Part shown: piece by piece, positions 3,771 through 30,380 of the stretch
Numbering within the stretch: the stretch's first letter is position 1
How the letters are laid out: the number at the start of each line of letters is the position of its first letter
Origin: a bacterium
Lineage (GTDB): Bacteria; Patescibacteriota; Minisyncoccia; Minisyncoccales; PWPS01
Direction of reading: 5' to 3'
Length of the DNA stretch: 36,150 bases
Assembly (NCBI GenBank): GCA_018400405.1
Contig: JAGYMX010000002.1
Location: forward strand, 1 to 36,150
Program-made: the position numbers and the translations under genes
The notes under the pieces: model-generated
Seen by the model: only the letters and a program-made list of their open reading frames with translations
What the model was told of the DNA's origin: nothing
Databases searched by the model: none

Positions 3771-4607
3771 ATGTCTTCTCTAAAAAAATATTTAATGCTT
3801 TTTTTCTTGTCAGAAAAAAACGGTGATTCTTTTTTTAAGAATAAAGGTTTTACTTTAATTGAGTTTTTAATTTATAGCGTTATTGTTGCTTTTATGACGG
3901 GAACACTTATTCTTGCGGGAGTAAATATTATGCAAGGAAGATCAAAAGTAGAAGCGATAGAAGAAGTAAATCATAACGGGAGAATGATAACGGAAGTTGT
4001 TACTCACTACATCCGACAAGCAGAAAACATAAACTATCCTTCTGAGGGAATTGCTGCAGACTACTTGTCTTTAGAGATGCCTATTGCTGAGGAGAGCCCG
4101 ATACGATTTTATGTAGAAGACAGTGTATTGCTTTTTGAAAGAGGATCGGCAGAAGCATCTCCTTTGACATCCGAGAGGGTGCGCGTAAGTAGCATTCAGT
4201 TTACAAATACTTCTTATCCGGAAAGTGCAAAAACAGTAAAAATGGTAGCGACGATAGAGTACAACAATCTCTCTGGGAAAAGTGAGTATGATTTTGCAAA
4301 AAACTTTTATGTTACAGAAAATATAAAAGAATTGGCAGGGATTGAAGAAGAGACAACCTCCACTACTTATGTTTTAACATTAGAAGAAAGTCCTTCTGCT
4401 GGCGGAACGGCAGTAGACAACACAAACAATTCTCCTTATGAGGCGGGGGAGGTTATAGATATAAACGCTTCCGTGGAAGATGGATATATTTTTAGCCACT
4501 GGTCTGATTCTGCGGGGGGAACATTTGGTAACTCATCTGTTGCCGATACAAATTATATTATGCCAGCGGAGGACGCAACGGTTACTGCTAATTTTGATTC
4601 TTTTTAA
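3771..4607 (+). CDS. Type IV pilin/pseudopilin-like protein with a C-terminal InlB B-repeat-like domain
   Basis: Class III (prepilin) signal …FFKNKG|FTLIEFLIYSVIVAFMTGTLIL, with Glu at +5 and a hydrophobic helix. The C-terminus YVLTLEESPSAGGTAVDNTNNSPYEAGEVIDINASVEDGYIFSHWSDSAGGTF…NYIMPAEDATVTANF fits the divergent InlB B-repeat pattern (Y.LT…GG…Y..G..v…A….GY.F..W……m…..v.A.F). Confidence 0.7.
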   Translation: MSSLKKYLMLFFLSEKNGDSFFKNKGFTLIEFLIYSVIVAFMTGTLILAGVNIMQGRSKVEAIEEVNHNGRMITEVVTHYIRQAENINYPSEGIAADYLSLEMPIAEESPIRFYVEDSVLLFERGSAEASPLTSERVRVSSIQFTNTSYPESAKTVKMVATIEYNNLSGKSEYDFAKNFYVTENIKELAGIEEETTSTTYVLTLEESPSAGGTAVDNTNNSPYEAGEVIDINASVEDGYIFSHWSDSAGGTFGNSSVADTNYIMPAEDATVTANFDSF

Positions 4608-4620
4608 TTATTCTATTTAG

Positions 4621-4693
4621 TGCCCCCGGTAGGACTTGAACCTACGACACTCGGCTTAAGAGGCCGCTGCTCTGCCAACTGAGCTACGGGGGC
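4621..4693 (-). tRNA. tRNA-Lys (anticodon CTT), no encoded CCA
   Basis: Folded by hand: GCCCCCG TA GCTC AGTTGGCA GAGC A GCGGC CT-CTT-AA GCCGA GTGTC GTAGG TTCAAGT CCTAC CGGGGGC A. 73 nt, 7-bp acceptor stem, canonical T-loop. Confidence 0.9.
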
Positions 4694-4699
4694 GTGTAT

Positions 4700-5080
4700 T
4701 TAGCAGCCAATTGTTATTTCTGGCCACTGAACGTCAACTACTCCAAGAGCGTTTAAAATCATAGAGATTAAAAAGTGAGAACCGTAAACAATAACGATTC
4801 CAACAACTACACTCATTAGTATTTTTCTGCCTTGCTCTACTCCTGCAGGGTTTCCCATTGATGTATAAAACTTTATTCCTCCCCAGATAAAAAGCATTGC
4901 GGCAACAGGTGGAACAATACTAAAAAGAAGAAACTCTAAAATATTTACAAAAAGCTGGAAAAGGTGACAAAGTTGGCAAGGAGGCTGTCCTGGGCCCCCA
5001 CAAGGGACAAGACCTTGTGCAAACCCAATAGCAGGAAAAAGTAGTAAAAACAGAAAAATAGAATTTTTTATTTTTTTCAT
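4700..5080 (-). CDS. Small secreted/membrane Cys-containing protein, T4SS-pilin-like (TrbC/VirB2-type family common in CPR genomes)
   Basis: 126 aa. Signal peptide MKKIKNSIFLFLLLFPAIGFAQG, then LVPCGGPGQPPCQLCHLFQL and two hydrophobic helices (…PPVAAMLFIWGGIKFYTS…, …ILMSVVVGIVIVYGSHFL…). This layout matches my recollection of Pfam T4SS_pilin (PF18895). Family assignment is from memory. Confidence 0.55.
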   Translation of the reverse strand: MKKIKNSIFLFLLLFPAIGFAQGLVPCGGPGQPPCQLCHLFQLFVNILEFLLFSIVPPVAAMLFIWGGIKFYTSMGNPAGVEQGRKILMSVVVGIVIVYGSHFLISMILNALGVVDVQWPEITIGC

Positions 5081-5172
5081 TGTAAGAATTATAGTATTTT
5101 TTCTAAAAAATAAAATACTTCTTCCTGTACGGGATCAGACCTCATACGGATTATAAAGAAGTGTGCCGTTAG

Positions 5173-5245
5173 TGCCCCCCAGAGGACTCGAACCTCTAAT
5201 CTCAAGTCCGAAGCTTGATGTGATATCCAATTTCACCAAGGGGGC
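5173..5245 (-). tRNA. tRNA-Arg (anticodon TCG), no encoded CCA
   Basis: GCCCCCT TG GTGA AATTGGATA TCAC A TCAAG CT-TCG-GA CTTGA GATT AGAGG TTCGAGT CCTCT GGGGGGC A. 73 nt, all stems pair (one U:G in the acceptor). Confidence 0.88.
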
Positions 5246-5267
5246 CAGATCAGTAAAAGCTTTTTTT

Positions 5268-5295
5268 AATATACCAGAGAATGTCAATTCGTCAA
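5268..5295 (-). promoter_or_regulatory. Sigma70-like promoter for tRNA-Arg, and probably the downstream small ORF and tRNA-Lys (TTGACG-16 nt-TATATT)
   Basis: On the minus strand, TTGACG (5295-5290), 16-nt spacer, TATATT (5273-5268). Lies 22 nt upstream of the mature tRNA 5' end. Confidence 0.45.
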
Positions 5296-5374
5296 CCGTT
5301 TTTTCTTTACTAAAAAAAGATTATAAAAATTTTAATGTATTAATGTATTAAGGTTGCAAAATAGATGTGTTTGT

Positions 5375-13473: not shown

Positions 13474-13486
13474 GAAGAAGCAATTG

Positions 13487-14089
13487 ATGTATTACAATAT
13501 AAATAAAGAGACAATAAGTGCGATGATGAGTGTTCCTGGAGAGGTGCGAGGAAGTGTTCTGAAAAAGGATGAAAGTTACATACTGATGAAAGAAGGAGAG
13601 AGGAAGTTAAAAGAAGTAGAAAAAGAGATAAAGGAGATGGGGTGTGCCTTTTCTTATAAAGATATAAAGAACAGTAGTTTTTATCCTTGGGGGGAAAGAG
13701 TTCTTTCTCTTTTGGCGATAAGTATGGTGCTTAATATGGACAAAGAAAAAATAAAAGAAATGGGAAGATGTGCAGTAGAAGACACCTTTTTTGCGCGTTT
13801 TTTTATGCGCTACTTTCTTTCTCTTGAAAGTGTTTTTCAAAAAGTTTCTCGGATGTGGAGGAAGAGAAATACTATTGGAAGATTAGAGGTGGAAGAGATA
13901 GATAAAAAAAGAAGAAAAGTTGTTCTTCATCTTTATAATCTAAATTTTCACCCTATTTTTTGTGATTATCTTTGTGGATATTTTTCAAAAATTGGAAGTG
14001 TGGCACAAGGAAAAGAAGTGACCTGCAAAGAAGAAAGGTGCTATTTTAAGGGAGAAAGTCCCTTTCACGAGTTTATCTTAAGATGGTAA
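13487..14089 (+). CDS. V4R/DUF2378-like putative sensor-domain protein, paralog 1 of 4
   Basis: The ORF track starts at TTG 13484; ATG 13487 is preferred (GGAAGAAG SD at 13473-13480). Shares GEVRG, FYP, KEMG, FFMRYFLS, HPIFCDYLCGYF and C-term …ERCYFKGESPFHEFILRW with the next three ORFs. Confidence 0.8.
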   Translation: MYYNINKETISAMMSVPGEVRGSVLKKDESYILMKEGERKLKEVEKEIKEMGCAFSYKDIKNSSFYPWGERVLSLLAISMVLNMDKEKIKEMGRCAVEDTFFARFFMRYFLSLESVFQKVSRMWRKRNTIGRLEVEEIDKKRRKVVLHLYNLNFHPIFCDYLCGYFSKIGSVAQGKEVTCKEERCYFKGESPFHEFILRW

Positions 14090-14091
14090 AT

Positions 14092-14688
14092 ATGACCTAT
14101 AACATAACAAAAGAAGAAGAAAAAAAAATAAAAAATATAAAAGGAGAAGTACGTGGAGCAGTGTTTTTAACAGACAAAAGTTTTATTTTGCAAAAAGGGG
14201 GTGAAGCAAAACTTAAGCAGGTAGAGGAAGAGCTTGCAAAGAATGGCTTTCCAATTTTTTTTGAAAATATACGAGCAATGGAATTTTTTCCCTATCCTGC
14301 AAGAATTTTTTCTATTATTGTTACAGAAAAAGTATTAGATCTTGGGAGAGAGGGAGTAAAGGAAATGGGGATAAATGCTCCAAAGATGTCTTTTTTGATA
14401 AAGTTTTTTACAAATTATTTTTTATCTATCAGTAAAACATTAGAAAAAACGGGAGAGATATGGAGTAAACACGCTACTACTGGCACAGTAAAGCTGCTTG
14501 AGGTTAATGAAGAAGAAAAGTACGCAGTTTTTACTTTTCAAGGTGTTTATTTCCCAGAAATTTACTGTGATTATCTTACAGCATACCTTGGAAAAATTAT
14601 ATCCATGGCGCTTGGAGCTAAAAAAGAAGCAAGAACAGAGTGGAAAACAGAAAGCGAAGAAAATTATAGAGTAAAAGTATCTTGGTAA
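14092..14688 (+). CDS. V4R/DUF2378-like paralog 2 of 4 (divergent C-terminus)
   Basis: ATG 14092 (MTYNITKEE…) is preferred over ORF-track ATG 14083, because paralog 4 begins MTYQITDEE…. Keeps GEVRG, KEMG, SFLIKFF.NYFLS and CDYL, but lacks the HP…C…H motif set (FPEIYCDYL…ARTEWKTESEENYRVKVSW). Confidence 0.8.
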   Translation: MTYNITKEEEKKIKNIKGEVRGAVFLTDKSFILQKGGEAKLKQVEEELAKNGFPIFFENIRAMEFFPYPARIFSIIVTEKVLDLGREGVKEMGINAPKMSFLIKFFTNYFLSISKTLEKTGEIWSKHATTGTVKLLEVNEEEKYAVFTFQGVYFPEIYCDYLTAYLGKIISMALGAKKEARTEWKTESEENYRVKVSW

Positions 14689-14692
14689 AAAA

Positions 14693-15310
14693 ATGGTTTA
14701 TGAAAACGAAAAAAATTTAGAAAGAGTAAAAAACATAAAAGGAGAAGTCCGAGGGGTTACTTTAAAAACTGACGAGTATTACGTATTAAAAAAAGAAGGC
14801 GAAGAAACATTAGAGAACGTAAAAAAGGAGCTGGAAAGATTAGGTGCGGGTTTTTGCTATGAAGATTTAGATAAGATGAACTTTTATCCGATATCTTTTC
14901 GTATTTTTTCTCTTCTGGCAATAAGCAAAGTGCTACAGTATGAAAGAGAAGATATAAAAGAAATGGGGAAGGCAGCACCAAGGGTCTCTTTTCTTATAAA
15001 GTTTTTTACAAAATATTTTCTTTCTTCGGGAGAAACACTTAAAAAAGTAACAGAGATGTGGGAAAAACATTATACAGAAGGAAAGATAGAGGCAGTAGAA
15101 GTAAAAGAAGACGAAGGAAGGGCAATTTTTCGTCTTCATGAAGCTAACTTTCATCCTATCTTGTGCGATTATCTTTTAGGTTATTTTTCTTCTATTGTTT
15201 CTATGGTTGTTGGAGAAAAAACAAAAGAAGAAGAAAGAAAATGTTTTTTCCGAGGAGATAAGTACCACGAGTTTTACATAACATGGAAACCGTCAAAAGG
15301 AAAAAACTAA
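14693..15310 (+). CDS. V4R/DUF2378-like paralog 3 of 4
   Basis: 205 aa. GEVRGVTLKTD…FYPISFRIFSLLAIS…KEMGKAAPRVSFLIKFFTKYFLS…EMWEKHYTEG…HPILCDYLLGYF…ERKCFFRGDKYHEFYITW. Confidence 0.8.
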   Translation: MVYENEKNLERVKNIKGEVRGVTLKTDEYYVLKKEGEETLENVKKELERLGAGFCYEDLDKMNFYPISFRIFSLLAISKVLQYEREDIKEMGKAAPRVSFLIKFFTKYFLSSGETLKKVTEMWEKHYTEGKIEAVEVKEDEGRAIFRLHEANFHPILCDYLLGYFSSIVSMVVGEKTKEEERKCFFRGDKYHEFYITWKPSKGKN

Positions 15311-15344
15311 AATTTTATAGTTATAAAAATTAAAAAACAAAGAT

Positions 15345-15947
15345 ATGACCTATCAAATAACAGATGAAGAAATTAATAAAATATTAAGTGCAAAAGGAGA
15401 AGTCCGGGGAGTAGTTTTTAAGACCGATAGACATTTTATTATAAATAGAGCAGGAGAAGATGGGTTAAAAAAAGTAGAAGAAGAATTAAAAAAAATGAAC
15501 TGTTCTTTTGACTACGAAGAAGAAGCAGACAACATGAGTTTTTATCCTATCGGTATGCGTGCAATGTCTATTATTGCCATCAGTAAAGCATTTAACCTTG
15601 ATAGAGAGGGAGTAAAGGAGATGGGGTTCCAAGCTCCGAAATTTTCTCTTATGATAAAGTTTTTTATGCGCTACTTTCTTTCTGCAGAAAAAATTATGGA
15701 GAAGGCGGGAGAGATGTGGAAGAAACACTACACCGTGGGGAAGTTAGAATCTGTAGAATTGAATATGGAAGAAAAGATTTTACGTGCACATCTTTATGAT
15801 ATTGATCTCCACCCTATTTTTTGTGATTATCTTTGTGGATATTTTGGATCTGTGATTAAAATGGGTGTAGGAGAAGATGTAAAAAGTGAAGAAGAAAAAT
15901 GTATTCATCAAGGAGACGAGTATCATGAGTTTGTAATAAGATGGTAG
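15345..15947 (+). CDS. V4R/DUF2378-like paralog 4 of 4
   Basis: 200 aa. GEVRGVVFKTD…FYPIGMRAMSIIAIS…KEMGFQAPKFSLMIKFFMRYFLS…EMWKKHYTVG…HPIFCDYLCGYF…EEKCIHQGDEYHEFVIRW. Its stop overlaps the next ATG (ATGGTAG, 15941-15947). Confidence 0.8.
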   Translation: MTYQITDEEINKILSAKGEVRGVVFKTDRHFIINRAGEDGLKKVEEELKKMNCSFDYEEEADNMSFYPIGMRAMSIIAISKAFNLDREGVKEMGFQAPKFSLMIKFFMRYFLSAEKIMEKAGEMWKKHYTVGKLESVELNMEEKILRAHLYDIDLHPIFCDYLCGYFGSVIKMGVGEDVKSEEEKCIHQGDEYHEFVIRW

Positions 15948-16501
15948 AAAAAGAAGAAAAAATAAAAACCCTTTCCGAGGACATAGCTTTACTTGAAAGC
16001 TATATTGAGGATTTGTTTTCCTTTACCCCTCTTCCACTGTGTTTTGTTAATCCGAAAGGAATGGTTTTAGAAGTTAATCCTGCTTTTATGAAGGTGACTG
16101 GGTATAACGAGTATGACGTTATCGGAGAAAGCTTGTTTTCTTTTATGGAAAAAGAAGACGCAGAAAACATACTAAAAGAAGCAATAGAAAAAGATATTGT
16201 TGAAGGAAAAGAAACGAAGATAAAAACAAAAGAGGAAGAGTATATTCCTGTTACCGCTTTTGCAAAAAGACGGAAAGTAAAAGGCGAAGGAGTAAACGGA
16301 GCGTTTTTTTCTTTTTTCGATCTTGCGGAAATAAAGAAAAAAGAGGAGGAGGTAAAAAAAACGAATAAAAAATTAGAGGAAAAAATAGAAGAGATGGAAA
16401 AGATAAACAGATTGACGATAGGAAGAGAACTTAAAATGGTAGAATTAAAAGAAAAAATAGAAAAATTAGAAAAAGAGCTAAAGAATTATAAAAAGAGTTA
16501 A
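15941..16501 (+). CDS. Soluble PAS-domain protein with C-terminal coiled coil (paralog of the kinase N-terminus)
   Basis: 186 aa. …YIEDLFSFTPLPLCFVNPKGMVLEVNPAFMKVTGYNEYDVIGESLFSF… (PAS S-box), then a Lys/Glu heptad-rich tail …KKLEEKIEEMEKINRLTIGRELKMVELKEKIEKLEKEL. Confidence 0.75.
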   Translation: MVEKEEKIKTLSEDIALLESYIEDLFSFTPLPLCFVNPKGMVLEVNPAFMKVTGYNEYDVIGESLFSFMEKEDAENILKEAIEKDIVEGKETKIKTKEEEYIPVTAFAKRRKVKGEGVNGAFFSFFDLAEIKKKEEEVKKTNKKLEEKIEEMEKINRLTIGRELKMVELKEKIEKLEKELKNYKKS

Positions 16502-16503
16502 GA

Positions 16504-18264
16504 ATGACAGAAGAAGAAACAAAAGAAGAGTTTTTAGAGGAAGACGGAGGAGAGCTTGAAGATCTTCGCCGATATATAGAAGATTTTACCTCTTTTCTTC
16601 CTTTGGCTTTTTGTATGGTCAATCCCCTTGATTATATACTTGACAGCAACAAGGCGTTTCAAGATATTACGGGATATGAAAAGATGGAGGTTATCGGGAG
16701 CAATATAGGAATTCTTTTCAAAAACAAGGGAAAGCTGGAAAGTTTTATTGCTCGAGTGGCAAGTAAAAGCACGGCAGTAGAAGAAGAAGTGACTCTTATT
16801 ACGAAAGAAAAAAAAGAAATCCCGGTAAAAATTTCTGCTCTTTCAAGAAAAGATGAAGAAGGAAGCTTTTCTGGATATTTTCTTACAATTAGTGACATCA
16901 CAGAGACAAAAAGATTTGAAGAGGAACTGGAAAGAAAAATAAAAGAGAGGACAGAAGAGTTGGAAAGAGCAAAAGAAAGACTGGAAGAATCGGAAGCAGT
17001 TTTAGAGGTAAAAATTAAAGCACGCACGAAAGAACTTGCAGAGTTAAATGAAAATCTTGAAGAGAAGGTAAAAGAAAGAACAAGTGAACTTGAAGAAAGA
17101 ACGGAAGATCTGGAAAGAAAAACAAAAGAAATGGAACAGACACAAACAGCACTTCTCAATTTAGCGGAAGATGCCGATGAGTCCTTACATGAGGCAGAGA
17201 AAGAAAAAGAAAAAACAGAAGCAATTATTAAAAGTTTTGTTGATGGTCTTTTCTTTTTTGATCCGGAGAAAAACTTATCGTTAGCAAATCCGAAAGCGGA
17301 AGATATGTTTGATGTGAAATCAAGAGATATTGTTGGGCGATCAACAAAAGAACTGAGAACATTTCCAACTCTTAAACCACTTATTAATTTAGTGGGAAGG
17401 GATATTAAAAATATTTTCCGAGAAGAAATTTCTGTTGGAGAAAATATTTATTTTGAGGTTACAACAATTCCTATTAAACACGAGAAAAGAGATATTGGTA
17501 CCTTGATCAATGTACATGATATTACAAGAGAGAAAAGCATTGAGAAAATTAAAAGTGAGTTTGTTTCTGTTGCTGCCCATCAACTGCGTACACCTCTTGC
17601 TGGAATAAAGTGGACACTTCAAACAATATTAGAAGAAGGAGAGACAGAAAATGTTCCAGAAGAAATTATTGAGTTTATCAAGAGAGCATATGAAGCTAAT
17701 GACCGAATGGTAAACTTGGTAAACGATCTTTTAAATGTAACGCGTATTGAAGAAGGAAGATATGTTTATGAACCAGAAGTAACGGATCTTATGGAAGTTA
17801 TAAACCCTATTGTTGAGGACTATAAAAATCACATTGAAAAAAAGGGGCTTCGCTTTGAGTTTAAAAAACCAGAAAAAGAGCTTCCGAAAGTAAAGATAGA
17901 CAAGGAAAAGATAGGGATCGTTGTACAAAACTTTTTAGATAATGCGATGAAATATACGAAAGAAGGAAAAGTAACTCTTGAAATAAGGTATAGTGAAGGA
18001 AAAATAAAAATCTCTGTTACCGATACGGGGGTGGGAATACCGGAAGATCAACAAAAACGCCTTTTTAACAAGTTCTTTCGTGCGGCAAATGTTCAGCGAA
18101 TGGATACAGAAGGATCAGGGCTGGGACTTTTTATTGCAAAAAACATTGTTGATGCTCATAAAGGAAAGATAGGGTTTGTTTCTAAACCTGGAAAAGGAAC
18201 CTCTTTCTACTTTACTCTTCCTGAGAGCAAAGGTGAGGTGGATGAGTTCTTTAAATCTTTTTAA
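16504..18264 (+). CDS. Cytoplasmic sensor histidine kinase: PAS - coiled coil - PAS - HisKA - HATPase_c
   Basis: 586 aa with no hydrophobic TM segment. PAS1 …YIEDFTSFLPLAFCMVNPLDYILDSNKAFQDITGYEKMEVIG…. Coiled coil with repeated ERT.EL motifs (KERTEELERAKERLE…KARTKELAELNENLEEKVKERTSELEERTEDLE). PAS2 …FVDGLFFFDPEKNLSLANPKAEDMFD…. H-box EFVSVAAHQLRTPL, N-box VVQNFLDNAMKYT, G1 VTDTGVGIP, F LFNKFFR, G2 GSGLGLFIAKNIV. Confidence 0.9.
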   Translation: MTEEETKEEFLEEDGGELEDLRRYIEDFTSFLPLAFCMVNPLDYILDSNKAFQDITGYEKMEVIGSNIGILFKNKGKLESFIARVASKSTAVEEEVTLITKEKKEIPVKISALSRKDEEGSFSGYFLTISDITETKRFEEELERKIKERTEELERAKERLEESEAVLEVKIKARTKELAELNENLEEKVKERTSELEERTEDLERKTKEMEQTQTALLNLAEDADESLHEAEKEKEKTEAIIKSFVDGLFFFDPEKNLSLANPKAEDMFDVKSRDIVGRSTKELRTFPTLKPLINLVGRDIKNIFREEISVGENIYFEVTTIPIKHEKRDIGTLINVHDITREKSIEKIKSEFVSVAAHQLRTPLAGIKWTLQTILEEGETENVPEEIIEFIKRAYEANDRMVNLVNDLLNVTRIEEGRYVYEPEVTDLMEVINPIVEDYKNHIEKKGLRFEFKKPEKELPKVKIDKEKIGIVVQNFLDNAMKYTKEGKVTLEIRYSEGKIKISVTDTGVGIPEDQQKRLFNKFFRAANVQRMDTEGSGLGLFIAKNIVDAHKGKIGFVSKPGKGTSFYFTLPESKGEVDEFFKSF

Positions 18265-18271
18265 AATTTAT

Positions 18272-18300
18272 TTGACAATATTTTTTAATACAGATACAAT
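18272..18300 (+). promoter_or_regulatory. Sigma70-like promoter for the two response-regulator genes (TTGACA-17 nt-TACAAT)
   Basis: TTGACA at 18272-18277, 17-nt spacer, TACAAT at 18295-18300. Starts 8 nt after the kinase stop and lies 40 nt before the ATG at 18341. Confidence 0.5.
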
Positions 18301-18340
18301 GCAGTAAAGGTTTAATCTAAATTATACTTTTTATATAAAT

Positions 18341-18808
18341 ATGAAGAAGATTATTATTGTTGAAGATGAAGAAATTCTTCGCAATCTCTTGCACAAGAAA
18401 CTTGGAAATGAAGGGTATGATGTTGATGTTGCTGAAAACGGAGAAGAAGGTCTTTCTAAAATAAAAGAAAACAAGCCAGACCTTATCCTTTTAGATATTA
18501 TTATGCCTAAGATGGGAGGATTTGAGATGCTTGAAGAGATGCAAAAAGAAGAAGAGCTCTCTAAAATACCAGTAATTGTTGTTTCTAACTCTGGACAACC
18601 TGTAGAAATTGATCGTGCACAAAAACTTGGAGCAAAAGATTGGTTGGTAAAAACAGAGTTTGACCCACAAGAAGTAATTGATAAAGTTGTCACGCAGATT
18701 GGGAAAGGAGAAAAAGAAGATTTTATAGAGGAAAAAAAAGAAGAAATAGAAGAGGAAAGAGAAGAAAATTTAAAAGATAATCCTGAAGAAGAAAACAAGG
18801 AATTTTAA
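18341..18808 (+). CDS. Response regulator, receiver domain plus acidic Glu/Lys-rich tail (no output domain)
   Basis: 155 aa. IIIVEDEE…, phospho-acceptor Asp in PDLILLDIIMPKMGGFE, VVSNSG, GAKDWLVK. The tail is KEDFIEEKKEEIEEEREENLKDNPEEENKEF. Confidence 0.88.
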   Translation: MKKIIIVEDEEILRNLLHKKLGNEGYDVDVAENGEEGLSKIKENKPDLILLDIIMPKMGGFEMLEEMQKEEELSKIPVIVVSNSGQPVEIDRAQKLGAKDWLVKTEFDPQEVIDKVVTQIGKGEKEDFIEEKKEEIEEEREENLKDNPEEENKEF

Positions 18809-18853
18809 AATTAATTATTAAAATTAGTAAATTTATAAATCAAAAGGTTAAGT

Positions 18854-19216
18854 ATGGCTAAAATATTAGTCGTTGAAGACGACAAATTTCTTCGGGAAAT
18901 GATTTCCCGAAAATTGGATAAAGAGGGTTATGAAGTAGTACAAGCAGTTGATGGAGAAAAGGGAGAAGAGATGATAAAGAGTGAAAAACCAGACCTTGTA
19001 CTTCTTGACCTTATACTGCCAGGAATTGACGGATTTGATGTTTTAGAAAGAACAAAAAAAGATCCGGAAGTTGCTGGGATACCAGTAATTATTCTTTCCA
19101 ATTTAGGGCAAAAGAGTGAAGTAGAGAGAGGGCTCAACCTTGGTGCAGTAGATTTTCTCATTAAAGCTCACTTTACTCCCGCAGAAATAGTAAAAAAAAT
19201 CAGAGAAACGATTTAA
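18854..19216 (+). CDS. Single-domain (CheY-like) response regulator
   Basis: 120 aa. ILVVEDDKFLRE…, PDLVLLDLILPGIDGFD, VIILSNLG, GAVDFLIKAHFTP. Confidence 0.9.
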   Translation: MAKILVVEDDKFLREMISRKLDKEGYEVVQAVDGEKGEEMIKSEKPDLVLLDLILPGIDGFDVLERTKKDPEVAGIPVIILSNLGQKSEVERGLNLGAVDFLIKAHFTPAEIVKKIRETI

Positions 19217-23460: not shown

Positions 23461-24426
23461 ATGATTTTGATGGCCAAAAATATGACTATTGAAGAGATAT
23501 ATAATCTTGTAATAATGACAGGTATTGATGCTGATTTTCGGGAAGAAAAGAGTATTAAAGATAATCTTTCGCGATTAAAAGAAAAATATGAAAAGATGTC
23601 TGATGAAGAAAAAGAAGAGTATGATAAAGAAAGATTAGAGAATCCTTTCTCAGATACGCGGATTCTTTTTGGAGATCGGAAAAAAGAAGTAAAAAAAATA
23701 CTTGTCGGAATTGATATTGATGGAGAAGAGATGCTCCTTGCAAAAACAATGGGAGATGTTGATCTTGTTCTTTCACATCATCCTCGGGGGATAGCTCTTG
23801 CCGGACTTGACGATGTAATGCAACTTCAAATAGATGTAATGCATCTTTATGGAGTTCCAGTAAATGTTGCTGAAAAAATGATTAAAAAAAGAATAGAAGA
23901 AGTTTCTCGAGGCCTCTCTCCGGCAAACCATAATCGAGTTGTAGATATGGCACGACACTTAGGAGTTCCCCTTATGTGTGCACATACGCCTTGTGATAAT
24001 CTTGCGGCAAAATATGTGAAAGAAAAAATTGAAAAAGAAAACCCTGTTTTTTTAGAAGATGTTATGAACGTTTTAAAAAAGATTCCTGAATACAAAGAAG
24101 CGATAAAGATGGGTGCTGGTCCACAGATTTTTGTAGGAAACAAAAGCAATAGAGCAGGAAAGATTGTTATTACAGAGATGACGGGAGGAACAGAAGGAGC
24201 TCCAGAGATATATGAAAAATTGTCACAAGCAGGGGCGGGGACAGTAGTTGGTATGCATATTTCGGAAAAGCATCGCGAAGCAGCGGAAAAAGCACATATA
24301 AATGTAATTGTTGCTGGACATATGTCTTCTGACTCCATAGGAGTAAACTTTTTTCTTGATAAGTTAGAAAAAAAAGGTATAGAGATTGTCTCTTGTTCTG
24401 GTTTAATAAGATATTCGAGAAATTAG
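23461..24426 (+). CDS. NIF3-like (DUF34, dinuclear metal centre) family protein
   Basis: 321 aa. …DLVLSHHPRG…, …MCAHTPCDNL…, …VVGMHISEKH…VIVAGHMSSDSIG resemble the conserved His/Asp clusters of NIF3/YbgI-type proteins. Assignment is from motif memory. Confidence 0.55.
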   Translation: MILMAKNMTIEEIYNLVIMTGIDADFREEKSIKDNLSRLKEKYEKMSDEEKEEYDKERLENPFSDTRILFGDRKKEVKKILVGIDIDGEEMLLAKTMGDVDLVLSHHPRGIALAGLDDVMQLQIDVMHLYGVPVNVAEKMIKKRIEEVSRGLSPANHNRVVDMARHLGVPLMCAHTPCDNLAAKYVKEKIEKENPVFLEDVMNVLKKIPEYKEAIKMGAGPQIFVGNKSNRAGKIVITEMTGGTEGAPEIYEKLSQAGAGTVVGMHISEKHREAAEKAHINVIVAGHMSSDSIGVNFFLDKLEKKGIEIVSCSGLIRYSRN

Positions 24427-24428
24427 AA

Positions 24429-25976
24429 TTATAAATCTTTTACCATATAGCTTCCCCTTAACTGGTATCCAAGATTTTTCCAGTAATCTCTTACTCCCAC
24501 TCCGGAAATTACGGCAACACGCTTTTTTTTGAACTCTTCTCTCGTTATCTTTTCTGCTATCTTTACCAGTTTTTTCCCCATTCCCTTGTGTTGAGGAGAG
24601 CTTTTGTTTTGTCCTTTGACAGGGAGATGCAAGCCGTAGGTTTTTATCTCTCGTATTATTGCAGAGTTTTTTAAAGAAAGAAAAGGAGTTTTTTCTGGTT
24701 TTCGTAATCGTAAAAGAGCAAAAAGTTTACTTCTATCTTTGTTTTCTAAAGAAAGAAAAATCTCATTTCCCTTTGAAGCAAGATAATTTTCTCGGAAAAG
24801 ATAGACTTTTTCAGAAGGGTTGTATGATTCTTTTACTTCTCGACACCGAATACAGCGACATCTCCACTTTTCTTTTTCTGCTACTTTTGCGACAACTTCT
24901 CTTAAGTTTGAAACCTTGCATCCCGCGAAAATGTGTTTTGCGGGAATATCTCGGAAAAGGCGCTGGATGCGGACATAATAAGGAATGATGTCTTTTTTTA
25001 TTTTTGCAATTATTTTTACAAGTTGTTTTTCACTAAAAGGAGTATACTTTCCTTTTTTAAAAAGAGAGAAAAGTTCTGTATTAGCAATGACAAGGCAAGG
25101 ATATATTTTTAAAAAGTCCGGTTGGTAATCAGAATTTTGAAAAAGCTCTTTAAATGTTTTTATGTCTTTTTGAGGAGTGCTTTTGGGCAGGTTTAACATT
25201 ACTTGATAACAAATCTTAAAACCCGCATCTTTTAGAAGTTTTGTTGCCCTTATCGTTGATTCTGTGGTGTGACCTCTTTTTATAAAAGAAAGAACATTGT
25301 TATCTACAGACTGCACCCCGAGCTCTACCATCGTCACTCCGAGAGCACGCATTTCTTTTATTTCTTCTTTTGTTATAAAATCTGGTCTTGTCTCTATAGA
25401 AAGACAAACAATGCGGTGTTTTGCTTTTTCGTTTTTTCTCTGTGATTCTTTGAGTGTTTTGCTTTTCTTTTTATTGCACGCATCAAAACAATTTTTAACA
25501 AACCATCTCCTGTATTTTTTTGGATAAAAAGACCATGTTCCTCCAACAATGCGAAGCTCTATCTTTTCTGTCGGATGCCCTGTTTTTTCTAATGCTTCTA
25601 TCCTTTTTGTAGTTTGTTTTGCCGGATGGTAGTTACTCATCCATGCACGCATTGCGGCTGGTTCGTCTTTTAAGTAACTTTTTGGTGATGCCTTTTCATC
25701 TGGACAGTAGATACATTTTCCAGGGCAAGGGAATGGCTTTGTGAGAACGGAAATATTAACTACCCCAGAAAGAGAACGAACGGGACGTGTTCGAAGAAGA
25801 GAAACTGTCTGTTCCTTACTTCCTCCCATTTTGTGATAGAATTGGAGGAGATGGACATTGGAAAGAAAAGAAGTTTTATATTTTTTTGCAAAAATTTTCT
25901 TTATCTTTTCAAGATCTTTTGCCGTTGTTACTTCTCCTTGGTCAATTTTTTTAATTATTTCTTTTTCAATTTTCAT
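24429..25976 (-). CDS. elp3: Elp3-family radical-SAM/GNAT tRNA uridine(34) modification enzyme
   Basis: Start trimmed to ATG 25976 (MKIEKEIIKKIDQG…); the 67 extra N-terminal residues in the ORF track overlap the divergent gene. Radical SAM cluster motif …KPFPCPGKCIYCPDE…, Elp3-type core …RIVGGTWSFYP…, …LSIETRPDFI…, …GVTMVELGVQS…. GNAT C-terminus QHKGMGKKLVKIAEKI…RVAVISGVGVRDYWKNLGYQLRGSYMVKDL. Confidence 0.85.
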   Translation of the reverse strand: MKIEKEIIKKIDQGEVTTAKDLEKIKKIFAKKYKTSFLSNVHLLQFYHKMGGSKEQTVSLLRTRPVRSLSGVVNISVLTKPFPCPGKCIYCPDEKASPKSYLKDEPAAMRAWMSNYHPAKQTTKRIEALEKTGHPTEKIELRIVGGTWSFYPKKYRRWFVKNCFDACNKKKSKTLKESQRKNEKAKHRIVCLSIETRPDFITKEEIKEMRALGVTMVELGVQSVDNNVLSFIKRGHTTESTIRATKLLKDAGFKICYQVMLNLPKSTPQKDIKTFKELFQNSDYQPDFLKIYPCLVIANTELFSLFKKGKYTPFSEKQLVKIIAKIKKDIIPYYVRIQRLFRDIPAKHIFAGCKVSNLREVVAKVAEKEKWRCRCIRCREVKESYNPSEKVYLFRENYLASKGNEIFLSLENKDRSKLFALLRLRKPEKTPFLSLKNSAIIREIKTYGLHLPVKGQNKSSPQHKGMGKKLVKIAEKITREEFKKKRVAVISGVGVRDYWKNLGYQLRGSYMVKDL

Positions 25977-25979
25977 AGA

Positions 25980-26642
25980 ATGAAGAAAAAAGAAGCTCAA
26001 AAAATAATGGAAGAGCTGCGAGATGATTATAACGCGGTAGCCTCTTCTTTTGCAAGCACACGGGATCGTTTGTGGCCAGAAATGAAGTTTCTTTTCAGGG
26101 GTGCAGAAGAAGGTGAAAGGGTTCTTGACATAGGGTGTGGAAACGGAAGATTTTCTCGTTACCTTGAAAAAACACACTACACAGGAGTTGATTTTTCAGA
26201 GAAGATGATTAAAGAAGCAAAAAAGCGGTTTCCTAAAAAAAACTTTATTATAGGGAATGCTCTTTCGCTTCCCTTTATAAGCGACACTTTTTCCAAGGTG
26301 TACAGTATTGCTGTTATTCACCAGATTCCTTCTCCTGAGAATCGAAGAAGATTTGTTTTAGAAGCAAAAAGAGTCCTTTCTCCTGGAGGAAAACTTTTCT
26401 TGACTGCTTGGAATATAAAAAAAGGAAGAAGTTTTTTTTGCGCAAAAGAAGCGATAAAAAATTTTTTTTCTTCTAATTTTCTTGGGAAAAAAGATATTTA
26501 TTTAAAAAGAAAAAGATATTATTATCTTTTTTCCCAAAAAGAACTTTCTTCTCTTGTTGTTTCTTGCAAAATGAAAATAGAAGAAGAAGGAGAAGTAAAA
26601 AAAGGAAAAAGAAGTAATTTTTATATCATTGCGAAAAAGTAA
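25980..26642 (+). CDS. Class I SAM-dependent methyltransferase, Trm9/ALKBH8-MT-like
   Basis: Start trimmed to ATG 25980 (MKKKEAQKIMEELRDDYNAVASSFASTRDRLWPEM…). …YNAVASSFASTRDRLWP… then VLDIGCGNGRFSRYL (motif I), …NALSLPFISDTFSKVYSIAVIHQIPSPENRRRFVLEAKRVLSPGGKLFLTAWN. These parallel yeast Trm9 …YNEIAPHFSQTRYKPWP…DVGCGNGKYL…SIAVVHH…GGQALIYCWA as I recall it. Confidence 0.65.
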   Translation: MKKKEAQKIMEELRDDYNAVASSFASTRDRLWPEMKFLFRGAEEGERVLDIGCGNGRFSRYLEKTHYTGVDFSEKMIKEAKKRFPKKNFIIGNALSLPFISDTFSKVYSIAVIHQIPSPENRRRFVLEAKRVLSPGGKLFLTAWNIKKGRSFFCAKEAIKNFFSSNFLGKKDIYLKRKRYYYLFSQKELSSLVVSCKMKIEEEGEVKKGKRSNFYIIAKK

Positions 26643-29414: not shown

Positions 29415-29458
29415 GATGTTTGTTATTAGTTTTTTGAAAAGTTTTTGATAAATTATTG

Positions 29459-29802
29459 TGGAGATGGGGGGATTGATCCCCCGTCCGGAACTTCAAAAAA
29501 AATAATTCTACAGGATTATCCCGATTCAGTAACGGCAAGATATAAATCGGGCAAAAATCTTGTCGTTTGGCTTTTTTAGCTTCAAAGATAAAAGGTAAAG
29601 CCGTTTCCTTTTATCTTCTATCCTCATATATGACACCTTTTCTACCTATGAGGAATCGGTAGAGAGGCGCCTACATTACGCTAATGCTAACGCAGGTTCC
29701 TTTTTGAATAAGTTGACACTTATTTTTAAGGTTGCAAGTTTAGCGAGATTACGCTCGTCCTGCCTTATTTTCTCCGGGAACTCCGTCGAAACGAACATCC
29801 CC
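29459..29802 (-). ncRNA. ssrA: tmRNA (SsrA), one-piece, no encoded CCA
   Basis: Minus strand 5' GGGGATGTTCGTTTCGACGGAGTTCCCGG… and 3' …GGACGGGGGATCAATCCCCCCATCTCCA. The acceptor GGGGATG/CATCTCC carries the G3:U70 pair. Internal tag frame …GAA CCT GCG TTA GCA TTA GCG TAA (…EPALALA*). Lies directly downstream of smpB. Confidence 0.9.
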
Positions 29803-29924: not shown

Positions 29925-30380
29925 CTATCTTTTGTTTTTTTCAAATCTTCTTAATTTTTTATCAATTTCTCTTTTTTTTATTGTATCTCTTTTATCATAT
30001 TTTTTCTTTCCTTTTGCTACTCCCAACTCTAACTTTAAAAGATTTTTTTTAGAGTATATCCGTAAAGGGATAAGAGTTACTCCTCTTTCTTTTTCTTTCC
30101 CAAACAGATAATCAATTTCGTTTTTCTGCAAAAGAAGCTTGCGGTCTCTTCTGGGGTTATAATCTTTTGGTGTGTTACGTTGCTGATAAGGGGAAATATT
30201 GCAGTTTACAAGAAAACACTCTCCATTTTTTACTGTGATATAAGAACCGACAAGAGTTGCTTTTTTCTTTCTTAATGCTTTTACTTCGTGACCAAACAAA
30301 ACTAAACCCGCCTCCATTTTCTCTATTATGTGGTAGTCAAAATTTGCTTTTTTATTTTTTATTAACTCTTCCATAAGCAT
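29925..30380 (-). CDS. smpB: SsrA-binding protein SmpB
   Basis: 151 aa. …NKKANFDYHIIEKMEAGLVLFGHEVKALR…LVGSYITVKNGECFLVNCNISPYQ…NPRRDRKLLLQKNEI…ERGVTLIPLRIY is a canonical SmpB. Confidence 0.92.
   Translation of the reverse strand: MLMEELIKNKKANFDYHIIEKMEAGLVLFGHEVKALRKKKATLVGSYITVKNGECFLVNCNISPYQQRNTPKDYNPRRDRKLLLQKNEIDYLFGKEKERGVTLIPLRIYSKKNLLKLELGVAKGKKKYDKRDTIKKREIDKKLRRFEKNKR

Follow-up and report, generated by a model that had tools for sequence, protein, structure and literature searches.

The subject of this study is a pair of divergently oriented genes within a 36,150-nucleotide (nt) stretch of bacterial DNA (positions 1 to 36,150 of contig JAGYMX010000002.1, assembly GCA_018400405.1), which we refer to in its entirety as the window. 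On the minus strand, positions 24429 to 25976 encode Elp3 (515 amino acids [aa] plus stop), a radical S-adenosylmethionine (SAM)/GNAT protein of the archaeal type with a basic N-terminal extension and a predicted tRNA uridine 34 (U34) carboxymethylating enzyme. On the plus strand, positions 25980 to 26642 encode a Trm9-like class I SAM-dependent methyltransferase (220 aa plus stop), a predicted tRNA (carboxymethyluridine34-5-O)-methyltransferase. Comparison with relatives revealed that the two genes stand head to head in hundreds of uncultured bacteria from many lineages of the candidate phyla radiation (CPR, or Patescibacteria), and we consider it likely, from the features of the two sequences, that they constitute an archaeal/eukaryotic-type two-step pathway of wobble-uridine modification, here in a CPR bacterium, yielding 5-methoxycarbonylmethyluridine at position 34 (mcm5U34).

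The window has a G+C content of ca. 33% and carries a broad set of bacterial housekeeping genes, including those for PNPase, ribosomal protein S15, the CCA-adding enzyme, TyrRS, NusA, ClpP, RNase Y, Fpg, the delta subunit of DNA polymerase III, S20, RuvA, a Mur ligase, L20, L35, IF3, SmpB (with transfer-messenger RNA [tmRNA]), ArgRS, IleRS, and RecO. The nearest relatives of both proteins of the pair are likewise encoded in CPR genomes, such as those of Nealsonbacteria and Paceibacterota. The head-to-head junction occupies positions 25974 to 25982; CAT at 25974 to 25976 is the start codon of the minus-strand gene, ATG at 25980 to 25982 opens the plus-strand gene, and only 3 nt (aga) lie between them, exactly as a preliminary description of this sequence had placed them. 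Neither true start is preceded by an upstream stop codon, and mechanically called open reading frames (ORFs) therefore run on past both, from a GTG at 26177 on the minus strand (24429 to 26177) and from a GTG at 25833 on the plus strand (25833 to 26642), the two overlapping, on opposite strands, over 345 nt. Homology backs the ATGs rather than the GTGs; in the 515-aa form of Elp3, the match to the TIGR01211 model starts from residue 6, and M1 of the methyltransferase aligns with M1 of its relatives. Given this overlap, an automatic gene caller could place either start wrongly.

The minus-strand protein is a full-length Elp3. It scores 565.6 bits against the NCBIfam model TIGR01211 (cutoff, 350), with residues 6 to 515 spanning model positions 1 to 522, and aligns over its full length with Elp3 proteins of solved structure: Methanocaldococcus infernus Elp3 (MinElp3; 6ia8) at an E-value of 7e-136 (457 bits), the eukaryotic Elp3 8ptx_C at 7e-100, and Dehalococcoides Elp3 (5l7j) at 6e-113 (381 bits), the last of which is thus a more distant relative than the M. 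infernus protein. In Pfam, Radical_SAM and Radical_SAM_C exceed their cutoffs, and ELP3_N, at 26.1 bits, falls marginally below its cutoff of 27. The ELP3_N match corresponds to a lysine-rich N-terminal extension (aa 3 to 68; 25773 to 25970, minus strand), and the alignment with MinElp3 starts at residue 10. Archaeal Elp3 needs such a basic extension to bind tRNA, and the Dehalococcoides protein has none (PMC6367351). The radical-SAM Fe-S motif, C84-x3-C88-x2-C91 (CPGKCIYC; 25704 to 25727, minus strand), has the spacing CX3CX2C, with one residue more in the MinElp3 alignment; the linker carries the Cys triad C373/C375/C378 (CRCIRC; 24843 to 24860, minus strand), a motif described as Zn binding in bacterial and archaeal Elp3 (PMC6367351); and the GNAT/lysine acetyltransferase (KAT) domain, delimited by the 6ia8 alignment (ca. 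aa 400 to 515; 24432 to 24779, minus strand), contains the acetyl coenzyme A (acetyl-CoA) motif Q462-H463-x-G-x-G467. The Fe-S cysteines, the Cys triad, and Q462, H463, and G467 were invariant in an alignment of ten diverse Elp3 homologues. The preliminary description had recognized an Elp3 architecture from CPGKCIYCP, QHKGMGKKL, and a C terminus ending in YMVK (the protein ends in YMVKDL), and this assignment is fully borne out. Its further remark that bacterial homologues of Elp3 are rare does not hold for the CPR lineage, where each of our scans returned at least 500 confirmed relatives.

The methyltransferase is less readily named from family models. Its Pfam matches are to generic families (Methyltransf_11, at 79.5 bits, and Methyltransf_25), and none of the curated NCBIfam models reached its cutoff (MTase_DVU1556, 59.6 bits against 155; MenG/UbiE, 58.8 against 158; BioC, 46.8 against 185; UbiG, 34.9 against 103), the matches to curated bacterial models being confined mainly to the SAM-binding half. 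Membership in the UbiE/MenG, BioC, UbiG, or ArsM family, or in another curated bacterial class I family, was ruled out on these scores. NCBI labels the relatives "class I SAM-dependent methyltransferase," and among the JGI labels are several of TRM9 or ALKBH8 and many of UbiE. Against proteins of known structure, the best sequence match was Trm9 from the Yarrowia Trm9-Trm112 complex (5cm2_Z; 9.4e-19, aa 25 to 219), which also came first with a profile built from 51 family sequences (2.7e-27) and in a Foldseek search (3.4e-16; target-normalized template modeling score, 0.82) with an AlphaFold (AF2) model made from the family alignment (predicted local distance difference test score, 92.3). Conversely, Yarrowia Trm9 (YlTrm9) matched all 134 CPR homologues at ca. 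91 bits over ca. 200 aa, and it matched five generic methyltransferases at 20 to 32 bits. Second place by sequence, profile, and fold fell to 3sm3, a structural genomics entry (Methanosarcina mazei Q8PUK2) which might be an archaeal relative of the family.

Trm9 leads in E-value by a modest margin, a common situation in this superfamily, and we therefore examined residues outside the SAM-binding core. Within the core, motif I (VLDIGCGNG; aa 48 to 56, 26121 to 26147, plus strand, within the Methyltransf_11 match) and D71 (codon 26190 to 26192, plus strand; aligned with D72 of the yeast enzyme, ScTrm9) include D50, G52, C53, and D71, which are invariant in two family alignments. Mutagenesis of ScTrm9, covering both activity and tRNA binding, identified R29, D72, H116, W145, W168, R241, Y243, and N271 as necessary for activity; H115 and Y18 also line the modeled 5-carboxymethyluridine (cm5U) pocket, in which N271 and H115 are modeled to read the uracil ring (O2/N3/O4) and R29 and R241 to hold the carboxylate (PMC4678810). 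By the 5cm2_Z alignment and Table 2 of that paper, residues Y17, R28, D71, H114, W144, R179, Y181, and N213 of the window protein correspond to ScTrm9 Y18, R29, D72, H115, W145, R241, Y243, and N271. Among 139 homologues (134 CPR family members and 5 unassigned sequences), the equivalent of W145 is present in all, that of R29 in 137, N271 in 136, H115 in 133, and R241 in 122; Y242 is retained in 137, and Y243 is Tyr in 87 and Phe in 23. All 94 fungal Trm9 proteins have these pocket residues without variation, 16 archaeal relatives have them nearly without, and the five generic methyltransferases mostly lack them. A resemblance to Trm9 had been noted in the preliminary description, on the basis of SSFASTRDRLWP, LDIGCGNGRF, SIAVIHQ, and LTAWN, all of which are present; the rankings by sequence, profile, and fold and the conserved pocket outside the SAM motifs now give it substance. 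The clustering with UbiE-type families that was to be looked for as a sign to the contrary was not seen, the curated scores lying far below their cutoffs.

Conservation of the gene pair itself was assessed from both sides. A scan with the methyltransferase alignment, with one genome per GTDB species, returned at least 500 confirmed relatives, and the best 80 loci were examined. Nearly all belong to Patescibacteria (among them Nealson-, Lloyd-, Portnoy-, Berkel-, Peri-, Magasanik-, Gracili-, and Campbellbacteria and Paceibacterota), and in 78 of the 80 Elp3 is the gene immediately upstream, in opposite orientation; of the two exceptions, one is at a contig end and the other has no Elp3 within 8 kb. 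In the reverse test, 80 metagenome loci were picked through Elp3, of which 4 ended with the contig. A methyltransferase stood divergently upstream in 71 of the 76 informative loci, was found elsewhere in 2, and was absent despite sufficient room in 3. A divergent arrangement conserved to this degree excludes chance pairing, and the co-occurrence in relatives on which the preliminary description had made its proposal depend is therefore very much in evidence. The next commonest neighbor occurs in 37 of the 80 loci. Conserved neighbors, none of which reaches half of the loci, encode NIF3/DUF34, an 89-aa protein resembling EF-Tu domain 2, a SLOG protein, a PHP protein, and a Mur ligase. No obvious link to tRNA is seen for any of them, no thiolase, Kti12, or Trm112 that could serve as a third partner is among the conserved neighbors of the 80 loci, and we treat these flanking genes as background synteny. 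The commonest neighbor on the Elp3 side is the DUF34/NIF3 gene, found in 34 of the 80 genome loci and directly adjoining in 20; in the window it lies at 23461 to 24426 (plus strand), convergent with Elp3 and ending 2 nt from its stop codon, an arrangement that may be plain synteny. One 4.6-kb contig (L032) labeled Candidatus Pacearchaeota archaeon carries a CPR-type pair with a methyltransferase 39% identical to that of the window. Its Elp3 falls into two tblastn segments with an apparent gap of ca. 800 nt between the starts, which could reflect a frameshift, an assembly problem, or a misbinned bacterial contig.

DPANN-type archaea show a looser form of this linkage. Distant relatives of the methyltransferase (ca. 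30% identity), some of them labeled Micrarchaeia, were found on archaeal contigs bearing genes for histone, aEF-1beta, and aS21, and in four of five distinct neighborhoods (six of seven loci) the opposite strand carries an Elp3 gene at a distance of one to three genes, its product being 40 to 44% identical to the window Elp3. In three Micrarchaeia-type loci (L083 to L085), a gene for a small stand-alone GNAT acetyltransferase (ca. 4560 to 5330) is located upstream of the Trm9-like methyltransferase gene, between it and Elp3; it is directly upstream in L085 and one gene away in L083 and L084.

Start-to-start distances at the 78 genome loci indicate that the close junction seen in the window is the rule. 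The starts overlap in 28 (17 of which share the tetranucleotide CATG), are separated by 0 to 10 nt in 24, by 11 to 50 nt in 9, and by more than 50 nt in 17, so that overlapping starts or starts no more than 10 nt apart account for 52 loci. With nearly abutting starts being typical, each gene must have its control region within its partner. That the junction has been kept across the lineage fits a coupling of the two genes in inheritance and possibly in expression too. A candidate sigma-70-like promoter for Elp3 (TTGCAA-18-TATAAT; 26026 to 26055, minus strand) is situated inside the methyltransferase gene, ca. 50 nt upstream of the Elp3 ATG, and its match at 10 of 12 positions is not significant (1 site against 1.4 expected in shuffled sequences). 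Shine-Dalgarno motifs are lacking in front of both genes. We considered whether the pair might be specially leaderless and rejected this, as nearly all genes of the window likewise lack such motifs and have A/T-rich upstream regions; translation initiation in this organism seems largely Shine-Dalgarno independent.

In eukaryotes, Trm9 depends on Trm112, which is reported to cover a hydrophobic patch of YlTrm9 made up of V59, F78, V102, A110, P112, and F116. At the position of V59, 113 of 134 CPR proteins have Arg or Lys, and at that of F78 at least 112 of 134 have Asp, Asn, Glu, Lys, or Arg; archaeal relatives show similar substitutions, and fungal Trm9 is hydrophobic (Ile, Val, or Leu) at the former position in all 94 sequences and has Phe at the latter in 88. 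The R115 hot spot is also lost in the prokaryotic homologues. A pattern search of small ORFs in the window and in the 80 loci found no Trm112-like ORF, although at ca. 16 kb per genome this says little. Because two central hydrophobic contact positions have become charged and no Trm112-like ORF lies nearby, the methyltransferase may, to judge from its sequence, work without Trm112. Two considerations run counter to this suggestion: the equivalents of the Trm112-contacting residues F116 and D117 are kept in the homologues, and the gene for a Trm112 homologue could lie in another part of the genome.

With Elp3 identified and the pairing conserved, the two catalytic steps can be proposed from homology, pocket conservation, and synteny. 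In the first, for which the homology is strong, the stand-alone Elp3 would use its radical-SAM center and GNAT-bound acetyl-CoA to place a carboxymethyl group on C5 of U34, giving cm5U34. In the second, the methyltransferase would grip the carboxylate and uracil ring of cm5U by means of R28, H114, W144, R179, Y181, and N213 and then, as the conserved active site and the synteny suggest, transfer the methyl group of SAM to the carboxylate, giving mcm5U34.

Several observations weigh against this interpretation. Trm9 is ahead of other class I methyltransferases by only 1 to 5 orders of magnitude in E-value, the runner-up 3sm3 reaching 2e-13 in the sequence search and 5.8e-15 in the fold search, and Pfam and NCBIfam offer no curated hidden Markov model of Trm9 by which the matter might be judged. 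A neighbor-joining tree (100 bootstraps) of 81 CPR, archaeal, fungal, and generic sequences recovered the fungal clade alone; its outgroup was heterogeneous and several sequences had been assigned to the wrong groups, and we take from it no more than the mean distances in this sample (CPR to archaeal, 1.45; CPR to fungal, 1.57; CPR to outgroup, 1.85), with no conclusion as to origin. Within the pocket, the equivalent of H116 is Gln115 in the window protein, a polar substitution in an otherwise intact pocket, and among the 139 homologues it is His in 84, Gln in 44, Asn in 8, and Glu in 2, when an H116A mutation inactivates ScTrm9 (PMC4678810). The solvent-exposed W168 belongs to a variable lid loop, the placement of which differs by alignment; two alignments put F167 at this position, and another shows no conserved aromatic residue. 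This variation at H116 (H/Q/N), together with a lid loop unlike that of fungal Trm9, would also suit a methyltransferase that works with Elp3 on some substrate or product other than cm5U and mcm5U, be it the 2-thiolated form only, another carboxylated U34 as with CmoM (uridine 5-oxyacetic acid [cmo5U] to its methyl ester [mcmo5U]), or another Elp3-dependent intermediate. The second structural relative, 3sm3, is without known function, and the yeast pathway itself has unsettled steps, with 5-carbamoylmethyluridine (ncm5U) reported to build up in trm9 mutants (PMC3110198). We nevertheless consider such a departure from cm5U unlikely, given that the residues modeled to read the uracil and the carboxylate (N271, H115, R241, and R29) are conserved, that neither CmoA nor CmoB is encoded in the neighborhood, and that CmoM-type models are outside the 25 best NCBIfam matches.

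More improbable still is that the methyltransferase acts generically on small molecules or proteins and stands beside Elp3 through inherited synteny that has no bearing on function. Such a role would fit the generic Pfam families and the generic or UbiE names given to relatives by NCBI and JGI, respectively, and other neighbors (NIF3 and the Mur ligase) are partly syntenic too. However, those neighbors fall well short of the 78 of 80 and 71 of 76 loci, spread over many CPR lineages, in which the pair is found; the looser linkage recurs in archaea whose gene neighborhoods are otherwise unrelated; the pocket residues specific to Trm9 are conserved; and UbiE, MenG, and BioC score far under their cutoffs. 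The remaining possibility, that Elp3 is mainly a protein (lysine) acetyltransferase and that the pair modifies proteins rather than tRNA, recalls the history of the enzyme, which carries a GNAT domain, was long regarded as a histone acetyltransferase, and is still so named in Protein Data Bank entries. It appears very improbable here, as acetyl-CoA hydrolysis by bacterial, archaeal, and eukaryotic Elp3 is triggered by tRNA and not by peptides (PMC6367351) and both the radical-SAM cluster and the basic, tRNA-binding N-terminal extension are conserved.

The proposed mcm5U34 pathway has a counterpart in eukaryotes, where Elongator, through Elp3, acts with Trm9-Trm112 (ALKBH8-TRMT112 in animals). 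The two catalytic proteins are the same, with full-length homology. Eukaryotic Elp3 has the radical-SAM and KAT architecture and the N-terminal extension of the window protein, and eukaryotic Trm9 has a fold in common with its methyltransferase, including the C-terminal hairpin with RYY, as well as the pocket residues R29, H115, W145, R241, Y243, and N271. The CPR system differs in that its genes are paired head to head in a bacterial host, whereas the eukaryotic genes are unlinked, and in that H116 is replaced by Gln, two Trm112-contact positions are charged, and no Trm112 was detected nearby. Elp1, Elp2, and Elp4 to Elp6 are not expected, there being archaeal precedent in the literature; no search for them was made, and 36 kb were in view.

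Archaeal Elp3 stands alone, like the window Elp3, the closest solved structure to which is that of M. infernus. Clustering of Elp3 and Trm9 has been described in Sulfolobus (solfataricus) (PMC2584109), an archaeal Trm9-Trm112 pair (Haloferax volcanii HVO_1032-Trm112) is active (PMC6144793), and archaeal Trm9, which works with Trm112, is reported only from Sulfolobales and Halobacteriales (PMC5372719, PMC6144793). The structure 6f5z, as its paper shows, is Hvo_0019 and not H. volcanii Trm9, and it was left out of the comparison. Compared with these archaeal systems, the CPR pairing is much tighter (starts 0 to 10 nt apart or overlapping), is hosted by bacteria, and is widespread across CPR lineages. 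Among bacteria, the characterized Elp3 of Dehalococcoides mccartyi (DmcElp3) also stands alone, binds tRNA, and has the same Zn-binding Cys triad, but it lacks the basic N-terminal extension that CPR Elp3 possesses; it has been called "a rare example of bacterial Elp3s" (PMC6367351), and we found no description of a Trm9 partner for it in the literature searched. Elsewhere, stand-alone Elp3 is attributed to archaea and "numerous bacteria" (PMC13315578). The familiar bacterial systems, MnmE/MnmG (which produce 5-carboxymethylaminomethyluridine and 5-methylaminomethyluridine [cmnm5U/mnm5U]) and CmoA/CmoB/CmoM (cmo5U/mcmo5U), have the same target, C5 of U34, and are built from enzymes unrelated to Elp3, although CmoM, in methyl-esterifying a carboxyl group on the U34 side chain, resembles the predicted methyltransferase step in its chemistry. 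Our search of open-access full-text literature yielded no description of an Elp3-Trm9 pair in bacteria and nothing relevant on Elp3 in connection with Patescibacteria, CPR, or DPANN. What is new here is thus a lineage-wide bacterial pair suggesting a nucleoside, mcm5U, that we have not found reported for bacteria; the pathway itself is known. The probable independence from Trm112 and the overlapping-start architecture might later justify the status of a variant.

A few other features of the window deserve brief mention. A full-length tmRNA (29456 to 29802, minus strand; 117 bits with Rfam), not reported by ARAGORN, lies directly downstream of smpB (29925 to 30380, minus strand). Positions 13484 to 15947 (plus strand) hold four tandem paralogues of ca. 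200 aa, 35 to 45% identical and without a Pfam match, in which a conserved CDYL motif and a C-terminal Trp are among 43 invariant positions; they are followed immediately by genes for a PAS protein, a PAS histidine kinase, and two response regulators (15941 to 19216). Finally, a pilin-like protein with an N-terminal methylation motif and a domain resembling the InlB B-repeat (3771 to 4607, plus strand) and a protein resembling type IV secretion system pilins (4700 to 5080, minus strand) are encoded side by side, and tRNA genes flank the two.

In the customary textbook view, the wobble uridine carries 5-carboxymethylaminomethyl or 5-methylaminomethyl groups in bacteria [(c)mnm5(s2)U] and mcm5(s2)U in eukaryotes (PMC5400242). 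One speculative and, at present, rather doubtful extension of our findings is that much of Patescibacteria decodes with an archaeal/eukaryotic-type xm5U34 wobble system, made up of a stand-alone Elp3 and a Trm112-independent Trm9, that makes mcm5U34 in bacterial tRNA and supplements or replaces the canonical MnmE/MnmG route; that DPANN archaea have the pair in common with these bacteria, whether by ancient shared descent or by interdomain transfer; and that it forms a single bidirectional unit with overlapping starts, the first codons of each gene doubling as the control region of the other. Should the two-step pathway proposed here prove correct, only two proteins would suffice for a "eukaryotic" wobble modification in a very large radiation of bacteria. 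Structural and mechanistic studies would then have in the methyltransferase a minimal Trm9, probably free of Trm112, and the pair would offer a compact two-gene cassette with which to install mcm5U heterologously. Proteins that are now mostly annotated as "class I SAM-dependent methyltransferase" or "UbiE" would need their annotation corrected, and the pair would add evidence on how the Elongator pathway arose and on the sharing of genes by CPR bacteria with DPANN archaea.

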